Assembly (NCBI RefSeq): GCF_030384885.1
Contig: NZ_CP128613.1
Reading direction: 5' to 3' (one strand)
DNA from: Escherichia coli
GTDB taxonomy: Bacteria; Pseudomonadota; Gammaproteobacteria; Enterobacterales; Enterobacteriaceae
Length of the DNA stretch: 64,000 bases
In this document: piece after piece, positions 59,301-64,000 of the stretch
How positions within the stretch are numbered: the stretch's first letter is position 1
How the letters are laid out: each line of letters opens with the position of its first letter
Program-made: the position numbers

Positions 59301-62300
59301 TGAAACAGTACGCCAATCTTTGCTGCACGTTGGCGGTTTTTCAGGTTTTTCATCGCCTGTTGTTGCAGTATAACCGTACCGGTTGTGGGCGTAAGAAGAC
59401 CTGCCATTACTCGTAACAGCGTCGATTTTCCCGCGCCATTGTCGCCGGTCAGCGCCAACCATTCACCTTGTTTGAGTTGCAGAGAAATGTCGCAAAGACA
59501 ATCCGTTGCCGCGCCAGGCCAGCGATAAGACATCTGATTTAACGTTAACATAGTGGCTGGAGCGCTCCGTTTTGCAATTGCCACGCTTGCTGGCAGTAGT
59601 TCAGGAAAGGTGTGCGATGACGTTCAAAAAGAATAATCAGCGAACCACGTTCAAACGCCCAGTGTTGTAAGCGCTGCAACAGCATTTCGCTGGCCTGCGG
59701 CGTCAGGCGACTAAAGGCTTCATCAAGAATTAATAGTTTTGGCTGCATCGCGATGGCGCAGGCGATGACCACGCGCTGTGTCTCTCCACCGGAGAGTGTT
59801 GCCGGGTGACGATGGCGCAACGGCTGGCACTCGGTCAGAGTCAGGGCGGCATCAATCCGCGCCATAATCTCCTCTTCAGCAAGACACAGATTTTCTGGCC
59901 CAAAGGCAACTTCTTCTTCCACGCTAAAGGTACAGCCGGAGAGCTGCAAATAGGGCGATTGCTGAACGAGCTGGATGGTGGCGGATTGTTCATTAAGCGG
60001 GAGATACCCAATGGGCGTACCGAGAAGCGTCCCCGTGCCGGTTATCTCTCCTGGCAGAAAGTCCGGATACCAGCCCGCCATCAGTTGCGCCAGCGTACTT
60101 TTGCCACAGCCGTTGTCGCCAAAGATGGCGACTATCCCCGGTTTGACATAGTGAAAGTCATAACAGAACGGAGGGTGCGTTGAGTGTGTCGGGCAATAGC
60201 GAAACTGTTCTAACGTAACCATATCCACGCTCCGAATTCTGCCAGCATCAGCAAGATCATGGCGTAACGTGCCACTTTTTCCAGGTTACTGTCAGGCGGT
60301 GCCCATAACGTAGTGCGCCGGTTGTGGATCCGAAATGCCCGCATATCCAGCGCCGCACCACGGATAGCCAGATCGTTTAGCGCATTGTGTGTTAGCGGAA
60401 TAATTAGCGCGGGTATAGCACGTAAACGCTGATACCAGCCCTCATCCAGCGGCACGCCACGGGCGCGCTGCGCTTCATGAATAATCGCTAATTGCCGTTT
60501 TAACTGCTCAACGACCAACAAAGGCCCGGCGAACAGATAAGCGACGCCCGGCGGCAGGCGAGAAGCAAACAAAGCGCGGATAAAACGTTGCACTGGGACG
60601 AATTGCATCCACAACTGCGAGGTTGAAACAATCGCGAGAATCCGCAGCCAGAGCGTAATAGCATGCGTCCACCGTTCTGGCGAGCGTGGCGTGCCGTTTA
60701 GCCATTCTGTCAGCCAGCCACCGTGTACCAGCCACAGTCCAGCCCCCAGCGAGAACATCAGCCAGACAACATATTTTGCCCGCCGCCGCGTGGCCTTTAG
60801 CGCAATAAGGCAGAAAAAGGTCGCCGCGCTATAGACTGTCAGTATTGTCTGTGTGGGCAGGATAAGCGTGGTGCAGGCCGCCAGCGCCCACAGCGTTAGG
60901 GATGTAAACGGATGCATTTAGCGCACGGCAGCCATTGCCGGAAAATGGCGCGTGGTGCGAATCGGCAGCTGACGCAGTAAAAGCCAGACAATCACCGCTG
61001 TAAGAATTTTATCGACCAGGTTTGCGCCTATCACCGTAATCGCCACCGACTCCACCAGGTTTTGCCCCATAGAGTGCATCCAGGCAACGAACAAATCGGC
61101 TCCGCTACCGGTGACACCGCCGAACAGCGCAGTACGCAGCGGTACAGCGACGACCGTTACTGCAAGCGTAATAATCACGCCGCTGACAACGACTTTTGGC
61201 AGGGTGCGAAACCAACCCGCTCGCGCCAGCCAACCGGCGACCAAGCCAATAACCATCGCCACGGGGGCAAAGGCGGCGGCGATCGGGTCGGTGAGCAATC
61301 CCCAGAGTAAATTGGTCAGTAAGCCGGTCAGCATCCCGATCACCGGACCAAGCAGTACCGCGCTAATAAGTGTGCCGATGGAGTCGAGAAATATAGGTAA
61401 TTTGACCATGCTGGCCAGTTGCCCGCCAATCATATTGATGGCGATAGAGATAACAATCAACACCAGTGCTTGACTGGAAAAGTGGCGACGCGCCATAAGA
61501 AAACCTCTCTGAAAGTAGTTATTTAACGGGGGAAATATGCAATTCGTCGTAACCAGAAAGCGCGCAAGGTTGGCGGCTAAACGCCAGCTCCTCAAGGCAG
61601 CCGATCACCAGTTCAAGCGTGGTCCGCACGGTACAGCCGGGCATCATATGACCGCCAAGTATCGTGCCGTGTGGATCGGAAACGCAGAGATGAAGATGTT
61701 CACCACTCTGTTCCAGTGTGCCGTTCAATGCGATGACTTCGAACTTACCGCTTAGTAGGGCCGTGTTTTCTTGCCCGGCATAGCGTAAGGCGACGTCAGT
61801 CAGACTGCCGGTACAACCTGCAATCCACGCGGCGTGGAGTTGTTGTTGCTGCGCGAAGGCGCGTAATTGGGAGAGAACTTCCTGTCCTGGGAGCAGGCGC
61901 AGCGCGTAAAAGCGTGCGGAGGAAGAATATGGGTAGGGCAATGTCATCATTGGAGTACTCCGAAACTCGGACGTATTGCGGATAATATCGACGCTGCATC
62001 AGTCATATTCTGATATAAGTCAGGGTTTGTGACGGCACAACGAAAAGATTTTGCTACGCTTATTCGTGATTCTGCAAAGTGGAATAAATTCCACAGGGGC
62101 GGGGCTGAAAACGTGACGTAAGTCAGATAATTGTCTTCTTTGACTGGACAATCATTCCTTTTATTCCACGTTTCGCTTATCCTAGCTGAAGCGTTTCAGT
62201 CGATTAAATGTTCGACAATTAACCAATCAGTCGCAGTTTGCGACAGGTAAGGTTTCCCCGGACGATTTGCTGGATTACTCTGTCTGGCAAATTTGCTCAG

Positions 62301-64000
62301 GGAAAACCTTGCAGGAGATCTATGACCGTACGCGTAGCGATAAATGGCTTCGGTCGCATCGGGCGTAATGTGGTTCGTGCTTTGTATGAATCCGGACGCC
62401 GGGCGGAAATTACCGTGGTGGCAATCAACGAACTGGCGGATGCTGCGGGCATGGCGCATTTGTTGAAGTATGACACCAGTCATGGCCGTTTTGCATGGGA
62501 AGTACGACAGGAACGCGATCAACTTTTTGTTGGTGATGACGCCATCCGCGTATTGCACGAACGTTCACTGCAATCGCTCCCATGGCGTGAACTGGGCGTC
62601 GATGTGGTTCTTGACTGCACCGGCGTATATGGCTCCCGCGAGCATGGCGAAGCGCATATTGCCGCCGGGGCCAAAAAAGTGCTCTTTTCACATCCTGGTA
62701 GTAACGATCTCGACGCGACCGTTGTTTACGGCGTCAATCAGGATCAACTTCGTGCGGAACACCGCATCGTTTCTAACGCTTCCTGTACCACGAATTGCAT
62801 AATTCCCGTCATCAAATTGTTAGATGATGCGTACGGTATTGAGTCCGGCACTGTGACCACAATTCACTCCGCCATGCACGATCAACAGGTTATTGATGCA
62901 TACCATCCTGACCTGCGTCGCACCCGGGCAGCCAGCCAGTCGATCATTCCGGTCGATACTAAACTGGCCGCCGGTATCACACGATTTTTTCCGCAATTTA
63001 ATGATCGCTTTGAAGCGATTGCGGTACGTGTGCCAACCATAAATGTGACGGCAATCGATTTAAGCGTGACGGTGAAGAAACCTGTAAAAGCCAATGAAGT
63101 CAACCTGTTGCTGCAAAAAGCAGCACAAGGTGCATTTCATGGTATAGTTGACTATACGGAATTGCCGTTGGTCTCTGTAGATTTTAACCACGATCCGCAC
63201 AGTGCCATTGTCGATGGCACCCAAACCCGGGTCAGTGGCGCACACCTGATCAAAACGTTGGTCTGGTGCGATAACGAATGGGGCTTTGCTAACCGAATGC
63301 TCGACACGACGTTAGCTATGGCTACTGTTGCTTTCAGGTAAGACGCAAGCAGCGTCTGCAAAACTTTTAGAATCAACGAGAGGATTCACCATGTCTGTAA
63401 TTAAGATGACCGATCTGGATCTTGCTGGGAAACGTGTATTTATCCGTGCGGATCTGAACGTACCAGTAAAAGACGGGAAAGTAACCAGCGACGCGCGTAT
63501 CCGTGCTTCTCTGCCGACCATCGAACTGGCCCTGAAACAAGGCGCGAAAGTGATGGTAACTTCCCACCTGGGTCGTCCTACCGAAGGCGAGTACAACGAA
63601 GAATTCTCTCTGCTGCCGGTTGTTAACTACCTGAAAGACAAACTGTCTAACCCGGTTCGTCTGGTTAAAGATTACCTCGACGGCGTTGACGTTGCTGAAG
63701 GTGAACTGGTTGTTCTGGAAAACGTTCGCTTCAACAAAGGCGAGAAGAAAGACGACGAAACCCTGTCCAAAAAATATGCTGCACTGTGTGACGTGTTCGT
63801 AATGGACGCATTCGGTACTGCTCACCGCGCGCAGGCTTCTACTCACGGTATCGGTAAATTCGCTGATGTTGCGTGCGCAGGCCCGCTGCTGGCAGCTGAA
63901 CTGGACGCGCTGGGTAAAGCACTGAAAGAACCTGCTCGCCCGATGGTGGCTATCGTTGGTGGTTCTAAAGTATCTACCAAACTGACCGTTCTGGATTCCC

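Follow-up and report, generated by a model that had tools for sequence, protein, structure and literature searches.

The 371 bp between a PPC-domain coding sequence on the minus strand and epd on the plus strand (positions 61951-62321 of the window, i.e. the whole 64,000-nucleotide stretch of Escherichia coli contig NZ_CP128613.1 that was analysed) raise the question of what such an intergenic region is for. An earlier note on this DNA, which put the distance at about 370 bp with coordinates that agree exactly with ours, saw in it a long 5′ leader common to an ECF-type transporter operon and epd, possibly a riboswitch or a dual promoter. The last of these ideas is the one that holds: the gap contains the mapped epd promoter and at least one promoter, probably two, for the transporter operon, according to published mapping (PMC2759082; PMC7667037), Salmonella dRNA-seq and a phylogenetic footprint. 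The notion of a shared leader does not survive, the transcripts diverging from starts 150-216 bp apart with no leader in common. With a probability of roughly 0.78, we read the gap as a compact divergent transcription-control region, with an FNR-type proximal and a distal promoter on the operon side, rather than as a shared leader or a riboswitch. A length of 371 bp is not unusual between two divergent regulated operons, and most of the content of the gap has already been studied, epd in K-12 and the operon's first gene in EHEC, with no new RNA element to add. The genes concerned are the following, those of the transporter being assigned from Pfam and NCBIfam matches.

61519-61950, minus strand: lmiA (homologue of z4267 / ECs_3799 / STM3071), encoding a PPC/DUF296 protein, first gene of the operon
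58874-61496, minus strand: ECF transporter genes, whole block
60918-61496, minus strand: ECF S component
60210-60917, minus strand: ECF T component
59545-60222, minus strand: ECF ATPase A
58874-59551, minus strand: ECF ATPase A'
62322, plus strand: ATG of epd

In the nomenclature of PMC7667037, these genes belong to O-island 119 (OI-119) of E. coli, and the PPC gene is lmiA (z4267/ECs_3799). The window matches an E. coli chromosome at 100% identity. The coding sequence matches Pfam PF03479 (E 2.7e-27), its product matches PDB 2hx0/2nmu at E 6e-70, and in the Sakai annotation lmiA is ECs_3799, adjoining epd as ECs_3798, with only 2 of the 371 bases of the intervening gap differing from ours. 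An identical PPC-ECF gene order was found at loci of 55 species. Since the length of the gap is kept at 364-380 bp across the 35 Enterobacteriaceae species with the same divergent arrangement, its spacing is constrained. The part between about 62080 and the ATG of epd is homologous to the yggC-epd gap of K-12, in which everything to the left of about 62080, that is the lmiA promoters and operon, is absent. Whereas lmiA has been called horizontally acquired (PMC7667037), the same locus is present here in about 35 Enterobacteriaceae species, and the 'O-island' proves to be an ancestral enterobacterial operon lost by K-12. At the edge of the K-12 deletion lies a nearly invariant block, GGAATAA (62081-62087, no strand; 5 of 7 columns invariant in 34 species), with an inverted copy, TTTATTCC, at 62160-62167. 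As to the literature on this neighbourhood, searches for STM3071 gave only a cited PhD thesis that treats it as a cobalt-transport regulator, and a sigma-54 site within STM3072; neither bears on the leader. An FlhDC gSELEX peak near epd was set aside, as it lies inside yggC in K-12 and outside this gap.

On the epd side, the epd-pgk promoter that the earlier note expected here is indeed present, with a start mapped to 62190, so that 132 nt precede the ATG, and a published promoter sequence that maps to 62152-62190 (PMC2759082).

62178-62200, plus strand: epd core promoter, with -10 TATCCT at 62178-62183 and start A at 62190
62185-62200, plus strand: Cra box GCTGAAGCGTTTCAGT, covering the -10 and the start (PMC5888115), as read from the sequence
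62112-62127, no strand: epd CRP site cGTGAcgtaagTCAga, with its centre at -70.5 relative to the epd start, a match to TGTGA-N6-TCACA, likewise as read from the sequence
62190-62321, plus strand: epd 5′ UTR of 132 nt, with hairpins at 62199-62216, 62230-62244 and 62247-62312

The same epd start is a primary TSS in Salmonella, and among 34 species 14 of the 16 columns of the Cra box and 12 of 22 columns of the CRP site are invariant. CRP has been described as a class I activator acting upstream of the core promoter (PMC5888115; PMC2759082), and the start, the CRP site and the Cra box that define a CRP class I, Cra-repressed promoter were all found. The epd-pgk-fbaA genes are transcribed from the known sigma-70 promoter with its start at 62190, which CRP activates from the site at -70.5 and which Cra represses by occupying the -10 together with the start. 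The epd leader folds better than expected (z -2.92, none of 200 shuffles being as good), and its second hairpin shows compensatory pairs. It probably contains in addition a weaker internal promoter with a -10 TACTCT at 62276-62281 and a start near 62288; in Salmonella, epd has a further TSS with a 34-nt UTR. A mini-ORF in the leader (ATG TTC GAC AAT TAA, 62208-62222) was rejected, its ATG not being conserved.

Many ECF operons of Firmicutes are riboswitch-controlled, for example the THI-box operon ykoFEDC, and the mgtA leader senses Mg2+. By analogy, a riboswitch or another ligand-sensing structured leader in the 5′ UTR of the lmiA-ECF operon could control the transporter, and there are two observations in its favor: the start mapped in EHEC lies 90 nt upstream of lmiA, so that a leader of moderate length may exist, and the operon responds to low Mg2+ (both PMC7667037), which is reminiscent of mgtA. 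Nevertheless, covariance models, folds, alignments and homologous operons all speak against it. The earlier note could not recognize a THI-box or B12-box by eye, and Rfam likewise finds none: at gathering threshold there is no match in this region of the window, a scan of 61900-62100 was empty, and a scan of both strands of 61400-62500 with lax filters and E<=10 gave a single noise match, to the Avashort thermometer on the epd side (E 5.5, with 15.6 bits where the gathering score is 88), leaving the lmiA leader region blank. The 150-nt minus-strand fold (z +0.39) and that of the 90-nt lmiA leader (z -0.09) show no excess folding over shuffles. Across 26 aligned species RNAalifold yields -2.8 kcal/mol and 7 pairs only, with no common structure other than a 7-bp hairpin over the ribosome-binding site, and nowhere in the gap is conservation lower than in the middle part of the putative leader, none of whose 22 columns is invariant. 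Homologous operons elsewhere point the same way. The 17 that lie outside the epd context carry no Rfam riboswitch, the sequences upstream of the operon in Proteus, Morganella, Budvicia and Aeromonas are unrelated, and those of two loci in Morganella share only about 35 nt right before the start codon. In Salmonella, transcription of the lmiA homologue begins at a distance of 27 nt from the ATG, equivalent to 24 nt here. The two results that the earlier note named as refuting its idea, an empty covariance-model scan and a start within about 40 nt of the PPC start codon, have thus both been obtained, the latter from Salmonella, whereas the EHEC start lies 90 nt upstream. Counted from the conserved proximal start, the lmiA leader measures 19-30 nt. 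The riboswitch, to which we give hardly any credence, is close to refuted.

What then drives the operon? A distal promoter has been published for EHEC O157, and could be placed on the window through the sequences quoted in PMC7667037.

62040-62077, minus strand: distal lmiA promoter, start T at 62040 with a 90-nt leader, mapped by primer extension in EHEC O157 (PMC7667037)
62048-62056, minus strand: its published -10, TAGCAAAAT (PMC7667037)
62072-62077, minus strand: its published -35, TTGCAG (PMC7667037)
62104-62122, minus strand: region protected by PhoP from DNase I, CTTACGTCACGTTTTCAGC, spanning -82 to -64 relative to the distal start (PMC7667037)

Binding of PhoP at the lmiA promoter has been reported from EMSA, DNase I footprinting and ChIP-qPCR, along with qRT-PCR, and less lmiA mRNA is present when phoP is mutated in EHEC (PMC7667037); the same paper describes the distal promoter as PhoP-dependent. 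The footprint overlaps the epd CRP site. When PhoP boxes were sought as (T/G)GTTTA-N5-(T/G)GTTTA with at most 2-3 mismatches, the proposed box GACTTACGTCACGTTTT was absent from the list at <=3 mismatches, having 4 by count, and boxes of that quality occur at chance level (158 in the window against 122 expected).

A second, proximal promoter is suggested by three elements nearer to lmiA.

61974, minus strand: predicted proximal lmiA start with a 24-nt leader, homologous to Salmonella SL1344 primary TSS 3253990
61982-61987, minus strand: proximal -10 TATTAT, with T1, A2, A5 and T6 invariant in 34 species
62010-62023, no strand: CRP/FNR-type palindrome CTGACTTATATCAG, centred at -42.5 of the proximal start

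The arms of the palindrome, TGA and TCA, are invariant in 34/34 species, and in most genera it reads CTGAT-N4-ATCAG. It is separated from the -10 by exactly 22 variable bases in every species, without any invariant column among the 34, and no -35 is found in this spacer; the hexamer itself varies at positions 3-4 (TATTAT, TATCAT, TATGAT, TAAGAT, TAAAAT, TAGAAT). Buttiauxella keeps the same spacing of 22 nt despite a different genomic context, and the composite pattern of palindrome and -10 occurs once in the 64 kb against 0.09 expected. In Salmonella, the primary TSS of the lmiA homologue (P1728, 3253990) lies 8 nt after the hexamer, leaves a 27-nt UTR and is present in two dRNA-seq data sets, with low read counts (2-26). 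The proximal start would by homology be used in E. coli as well, although the only start mapped in E. coli itself, by primer extension in EHEC, is the one at -90 and not at -24. A promoter from about 61974 would thus be kept across Enterobacteriaceae, the dimer site at -42.5 having the geometry of a class II activator.

One could object that E. coli uses only the distal PhoP-dependent promoter at 62040, and that the proximal elements are operator or RNA features within its 90-nt leader, such as a site at which a bound repressor acts as a roadblock. This would agree with the one major primer extension product at -90 and the lower lmiA mRNA in the EHEC phoP mutant (PMC7667037), as well as with the conservation of the distal -10 and -35, which is, however, confined to the core genera. 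In Atlantibacter, Superficieibacter and others the distal -10 decays while the proximal elements stay invariant, so that the proximal promoter is by far the better conserved of the two. The TAnnAT signature and the fixed gap of 22 nt are what a promoter predicts, and not an operator; TEX-based dRNA-seq of Salmonella lists in both data sets a proximal primary start and no distal one; and the weakness of the proposed PhoP box takes away from the case for the distal promoter. We consider exclusive use of the distal start quite unlikely. That the operon is driven mainly by the so far unnoticed, family-wide class II promoter at about 61974, activated by FNR or a related CRP/FNR-family protein, is a proposal to which we would give a little less than even chances.

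A consensus sigma-70 scan of 61800-62450 found no promoter, as one would expect where activators are needed, and says little about promoters that, like these two, have no -35; its blank result also means that no element here rests on a strong -35/-10 match. Of several minus-strand promoter candidates picked by eye, one coincides with the published distal promoter, and the others were not conserved and were dropped. With up to 3 mismatches allowed, the LmiA binding motif TTAAAGTCGTTTGTTAA does not occur in the window, and there is thus no sign of autoregulation through it. Searching the literature with the sequence of the palindrome, and the supplements of a Salmonella macrophage RNA-seq paper, gave no match.

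Which protein would bind the palindrome? The FNR consensus is TTGATnnnnATCAA, and the site lies at -41.5 +/- 4 in 19 of 23 directly activated promoters (PMC3688515). Compared with TTGAT-N4-ATCAA, the palindrome agrees at 8/10 positions in most genera and, as CTGAC-TTAT-ATCAG, at 7/10 in E. coli; it thus resembles an FNR site, except that its outermost position carries C/G in place of the T/A normally read by FNR. A site at about -41.5 together with a -10 and a poor -35 is also found, if the start transferred from Salmonella is used. Induction upon oxygen limitation is taken from the literature, in one microarray time course, as a correlation: upon collapse of dissolved oxygen in O157 Sakai, ECs3799, ECs3800 and ECs3802 rise by log2 2.3-2.9, clustering with the FNR-regulon genes pflB, narK, yfiD, hypAB and nrdDG, and go down again when oxygen recovers (PMC2241611); the identity of the genes was confirmed in the Sakai annotation. 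FNR ChIP-seq from K-12 is blind to the lmiA promoter because K-12 lacks the locus. FNR would be the most likely factor at the palindrome, turning on the operon as oxygen runs out.

Another member of the CRP/FNR family, such as CRP, is possible on the basis of the motif. Were the palindrome at 62010-62023 a CRP site, the proximal promoter would be a class II CRP promoter and the operon tied to carbon status like epd. The arms TGA-N6-TCA are the core of the CRP consensus, the palindrome shares 85% identity with the known CRP site of epd at a distance of 103 bp, and the variants in Trabulsiella, Leclercia and Phytobacter shift to GTGA/TCAC. Most genera, however, have T and A beside the arms (TGAT/ATCA), which gives the above 8/10 agreement with the FNR motif. 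Furthermore, expression of the Sakai operon goes up together with the FNR regulon when oxygen becomes limiting but falls at stationary entry (glucose exhaustion), when the CRP-activated acs and aceB rise (PMC2241611), and CRP thus seems a rather improbable binder. The C/G at the discriminator positions, which is unusual, symmetric and conserved, would also be compatible with a member of the family dedicated to this site, e.g. YeiL.

Directly after the proximal start lies a further symmetrical element.

61957-61974, minus strand: predicted 5′ hairpin ACGUCCGA[GUU]UCGGAGU

The Shine-Dalgarno GGAG (61958-61961) lies within its 3′ arm, its predicted energy is -4.7 to -6.3 kcal/mol in 34/34 species, pairing is kept in 94% of cells and compensatory changes occur at 2 pairs. 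At the start of a 24-nt leader, such a hairpin would occlude the Shine-Dalgarno sequence and might reduce translation or shield the 5′ end. The same sequence, TCCGAG-T-CTCGGA at +4 to +16, is in most genera a 13-bp DNA palindrome in a classic operator position, and might instead bind a dimeric repressor as DNA; a symmetric double change in Superficieibacter is compatible with either model. In Escherichia sp. ESNIH1 and Pseudescherichia, however, another stem occurs that pairs via G-U wobbles only (CUUCG/CGAGG and CUUUG/CGAGG), which is compatible with RNA but is no DNA palindrome, and either C or T is found at the centre, as expected of a loop. A DNA operator is therefore unlikely, and the hairpin is the reading that we retain, its function being a suggestion from the predicted fold.

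If the virulence regulator gene lmiA and its transporter depend chiefly on the proximal class II promoter, under FNR or a related protein, oxygen limitation in the gut would be tied directly to LEE activation in EHEC, and the PhoP promoter at -90 would be secondary, its 'PhoP box' being largely the epd CRP site. A probable FNR-type lmiA promoter would add an oxygen input to the published Mg2+/PhoP virulence pathway. The by-products of the analysis are of modest value, for specialists of EHEC and Salmonella.

The region can be compared with four known systems. With the P0 promoter of epd in E. coli K-12 (Bardey et al. 2005, as related in PMC2759082 and PMC5888115) it shares the -132 start, the CRP site and the Cra box, whereas K-12 lacks the lmiA promoters and operon. 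The lmiA promoter of EHEC (Liu et al. 2020, mBio; PMC7667037) is the same locus, and TTGCAG, TAGCAAAAT and the footprint CTTACGTCACGTTTTCAGC are all present here. That study reports one start only, at -90, under the control of PhoP. It mentions neither the conserved proximal -10 and the CRP/FNR-type palindrome, nor the start at -27 in Salmonella, nor that the footprint overlaps the epd CRP site. Like class II FNR promoters, in which the site is at -41.5 (dmsA, narG, nirB) or at -42.5 (fnrS, ydhY) (PMC3688515), the proximal promoter has a 5-N4-5 palindrome at -42.5, no recognizable -35 and induction at low oxygen, but its half-sites end in C/G instead of T/A. Finally, with the riboswitch-controlled ECF operons of Firmicutes the locus has in common an ECF-type transporter operon with a non-coding region upstream. 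In contrast to these, it has no aptamer, no covariance-model match and no terminator or anti-terminator, its leader is just 24 nt long, or 90 nt and devoid of structure, and control is exerted by protein factors at transcription initiation.

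The divergent PPC/DUF296 protein gene (lmiA) and epd are separated by 371 bp (61951-62321), in agreement with the roughly 370 bp that the earlier note had put between them. Continuing on the strand of lmiA, four genes downstream encode an ECF S component, a T component and two ATPases. The main genes are:

60918-61496, minus strand: ECF S component; scores best against the NCBIfam CD3073-family model, at 136 bits, under the 180-bit cut-off
61519-61950, minus strand: lmiA, 143 aa (Pfam PF03479, E 2.7e-27)
62322, plus strand: ATG of epd

Across 61400-62500 the sequence has 100% identity with E. 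coli chromosome NZ_CP027579. Of 5426 complete E. coli genomes, 3327 have this stretch entire; the others, K-12 among them, carry its epd part only. In O157 Sakai the counterparts are ECs_3799 to ECs_3803, adjoining epd (ECs_3798), and the gap differs from that of the window at 2/371 positions. The locus is O-island 119 of EHEC.

The earlier note had suggested a riboswitch or a dual promoter in a leader shared by epd and the operon. "Shared leader" is a misdescription, since the epd and lmiA transcripts start on opposite strands, and it is the dual promoter that holds, with an epd start at 62190 and lmiA starts at 61974 (predicted from Salmonella) and 62040 (EHEC) on the opposite strand. An Rfam search of both strands with relaxed filters (E<=10) gave no match in 61900-62100, and its sole match in the gap region, to the Avashort thermometer on the epd side, is noise (15.6 bits versus a gathering score of 88). 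At the gathering threshold, the whole window yielded only the following, all far from the gap:

12122-12343, minus strand: C0719 sRNA (Rfam, 283 bits)
20299-20421, minus strand: isrC Hfq-binding RNA (Rfam, 145 bits)
20658-20730, minus strand: tRNA (Rfam, gathering level)

Folding was no better than that of shuffles for the 150 nt upstream of lmiA on the minus strand (z +0.39) or for the 90-nt lmiA leader from the published EHEC start (z -0.09), and RNAalifold over 26 species gave -2.8 kcal/mol with seven pairs. An Rfam riboswitch is also absent from 17 homologous operons outside the epd context, and upstream regions of such operons bear no relation to that of the window. With no covariance-model match and a Salmonella start 27 nt from the start codon, the riboswitch suggestion is refuted on the terms that the note itself set, and we conclude that a riboswitch, known or novel, is absent from the gap by the methods used.

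On the lmiA side, conservation across 34 aligned Enterobacteriaceae gaps is sharply patterned. Read upstream from lmiA, the elements are:

61957-61974, minus strand: ACGTCCGAGTCTCGGAGT, including the Shine-Dalgarno; mean majority frequency 0.96
61975-61981, minus strand: variable discriminator, 0/7 columns invariant
61982-61987, minus strand: hexamer; T1, A2, A5 and T6 invariant, positions 3-4 variable
61988-62009, minus strand: spacer of exactly 22 nt, 0/22 columns invariant
62010-62023: palindrome, TGA and TCA arms invariant in 34/34 species

The hexamer variants are TATTAT, TATCAT, TATGAT, TAAGAT, TAAAAT and TAGAAT, and the palindrome reads CTGAT-N4-ATCAG in most genera and CTGAC-TTAT-ATCAG in E. 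coli. The 22-nt gap is kept at every locus, including that of Buttiauxella, in which the operon is not beside epd, and the 64-kb window has a single occurrence of the composite of palindrome, 22 nt and hexamer, where 0.09 would be expected. On this comparative evidence, the pattern is the footprint of a predicted activator-dependent promoter without a -35, the activator site lying 29.5 bp upstream of the first -10 base. In S. Typhimurium SL1344, dRNA-seq gives SL1344_3047 (STM3071; operon 3047-3051) a primary start at 3253990 and a UTR of 27 nt, the sequence from -50 to +1 being ACTGATTTATATCAGAAAGCGCTGTCGCCAGCGTCTATATTATCAGCGCCA (PMC3293720 Table S1), and a second data set has the identical start (PMC3963941). 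This start is a conserved A, eight bases past the hexamer; transferred to the window, it would lie at 61974, giving a 24-nt leader and a palindrome at -42.5.

The FNR consensus is TTGATnnnnATCAA (PMC3688515). It is possible that CRP or another family member acts at the palindrome, whose outermost half-site base is C/G rather than T/A, which in three species shifts at this position towards the CRP-like GTGA/TCAC, and which shares 85% identity with the CRP site of epd. However, the response of the Sakai operon to oxygen loss favours FNR over CRP. In a time course (PMC2241611), ECs3799, ECs3800 and ECs3802 rose by log2 2.9, 2.3 and 2.4, coinciding with a ~95% fall in dissolved oxygen, and clustered with pflB, narK, adhE, fdnG, yfiD, hypAB and nrdDG; as the culture passed into stationary phase, they went down again (log2 -2.4 to -2.7). 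This rise and clustering point to FNR as the candidate factor, the oxygen response being a correlation.

Leaders from the proximal start are 19-30 nt long in all 34 species, and every one opens with a small predicted hairpin (-4.7 to -6.3 kcal/mol) whose 3' arm covers the GGA of the Shine-Dalgarno. Across the aligned leaders, pairing holds for 94% of cells, with compensatory changes at two pairs; A-U becomes G-C in Superficieibacter, and C-G becomes G-C in Escherichia sp. ESNIH1 and Pseudescherichia. Since the stem in the ESNIH1 lineage is retained only via G-U wobbles, the comparison favours a putative RNA role over a DNA operator. The hairpin might damp translation or shield the 5' end.

For epd, the promoter sequence ACATTCCTTTTATTCCACGTTTCGCTTATCCTAGCTGAA, with a start 132 nt before the ATG (PMC2759082), places the start at 62190, and the Salmonella UTR is likewise 132 nt (PMC3293720 Table S1). 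Its elements are:

62112-62127: CRP-type site cGTGAcgtaagTCAga, centre -70.5, agreeing with class I CRP activation of this promoter (PMC5888115)
62178-62183, plus strand: -10 hexamer TATCCT
62185-62200: Cra box GCTGAAGCGTTTCAGT, its position agreeing with PMC5888115, where Cra covers the -10 and start

All are strongly conserved in the 34 species (invariant columns: Cra box 14/16, CRP site 12/22). The 132-nt leader (62190-62321) is significantly structured (z -2.92, 0/200 shuffles as good), with three hairpins, the last ending just ahead of the Shine-Dalgarno, and compensatory changes in the second (62230-62244); no Rfam family matched it. A second Salmonella start, 34 nt before the ATG (PMC3293720 Table S1, PMC3963941), corresponds to ~62288, and its -10 underlies the invariant loop sequence ATTACTCTGT, which explains part of the invariance of the leader. 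Salmonella dRNA-seq also has a weak secondary epd-strand start (3 and 8 reads) 295 nt upstream of epd. As this start (~62026, plus strand) falls directly past the CTGATATAAATCAG palindrome, which has TATAAA at its centre, the predicted FNR-type site may double as a weak back-to-back -10.

In EHEC, fluorescent primer extension has located the start of lmiA transcription at a T corresponding to 62040 of the window, 90 nt ahead of the ATG, with -35 TTGCAG, -10 TAGCAAAAT and a PhoP footprint CTTACGTCACGTTTTCAGC at -82 to -64 (PMC7667037), which is 62122-62104 here. These distal elements are kept in Escherichia, Citrobacter, Klebsiella, Kluyvera, Silvania and Leclercia and have decayed in more distant genera. 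From both starts and this conservation, we therefore think that lmiA has two promoters, the distal one of the EHEC report and a universally conserved proximal one. The "PhoP box" has four mismatches to consensus by our count, not three, and matches of this grade turn up in the window about as often as chance predicts. Footprint and box overlap the conserved epd CRP site (62104-62127), where PhoP and CRP might compete, or the published mutations may also affect epd. Midway between the divergent starts lies a nearly invariant GGAATAA block (62081-62087), with an inverted copy, TTTATTCC, in the epd promoter spacer (62160-62167); in E. coli the first block belongs to a perfect 16-bp palindrome, GTGGAATAAATTCCAC (62080-62095). 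The block may serve the distal lmiA promoter as an UP-like element, or it may be a site for some other regulator.

The five-gene operon was found at 55 species loci. It is divergent from epd in 35 Enterobacteriaceae species, with a gap of 364-380 bp, and sited elsewhere in Proteus, Morganella, Providencia, Budvicia, Limnobaculum, Buttiauxella and Aeromonas. Whereas lmiA of O-island 119 has been called horizontally acquired (PMC7667037), the operon (58833-62080) looks ancestral and deleted in K-12, given its epd-divergent position in so many species and its presence in Proteus, Morganella, Providencia and Aeromonas. The K-12 deletion junctions are at ~62080 and within the yggC 3' end; K-12 homology spans ~62080 to epd, and only 61951-62079 of the gap belongs to the extra segment. 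The yggC C-terminus departs from the K-12 version from ~58833 on, and the convergent 3' ends of yggC (plus strand) and the second ECF ATPase gene (minus strand) overlap by 29 bp (58874-58902). The Sakai operon is co-induced with nik and hyp genes under oxygen limitation, which hints that the S component substrate may be a cofactor or metal required anaerobically. STM3071 was the subject of a PhD thesis (Piotrowska 2018), as a cobalt-transport regulator.

Earlier work has covered the epd half and the lmiA half of the gap alike, and the feature is already known. What our analysis would add to these systems is a strongly conserved proximal lmiA promoter of predicted class II CRP/FNR type, apparently undescribed.
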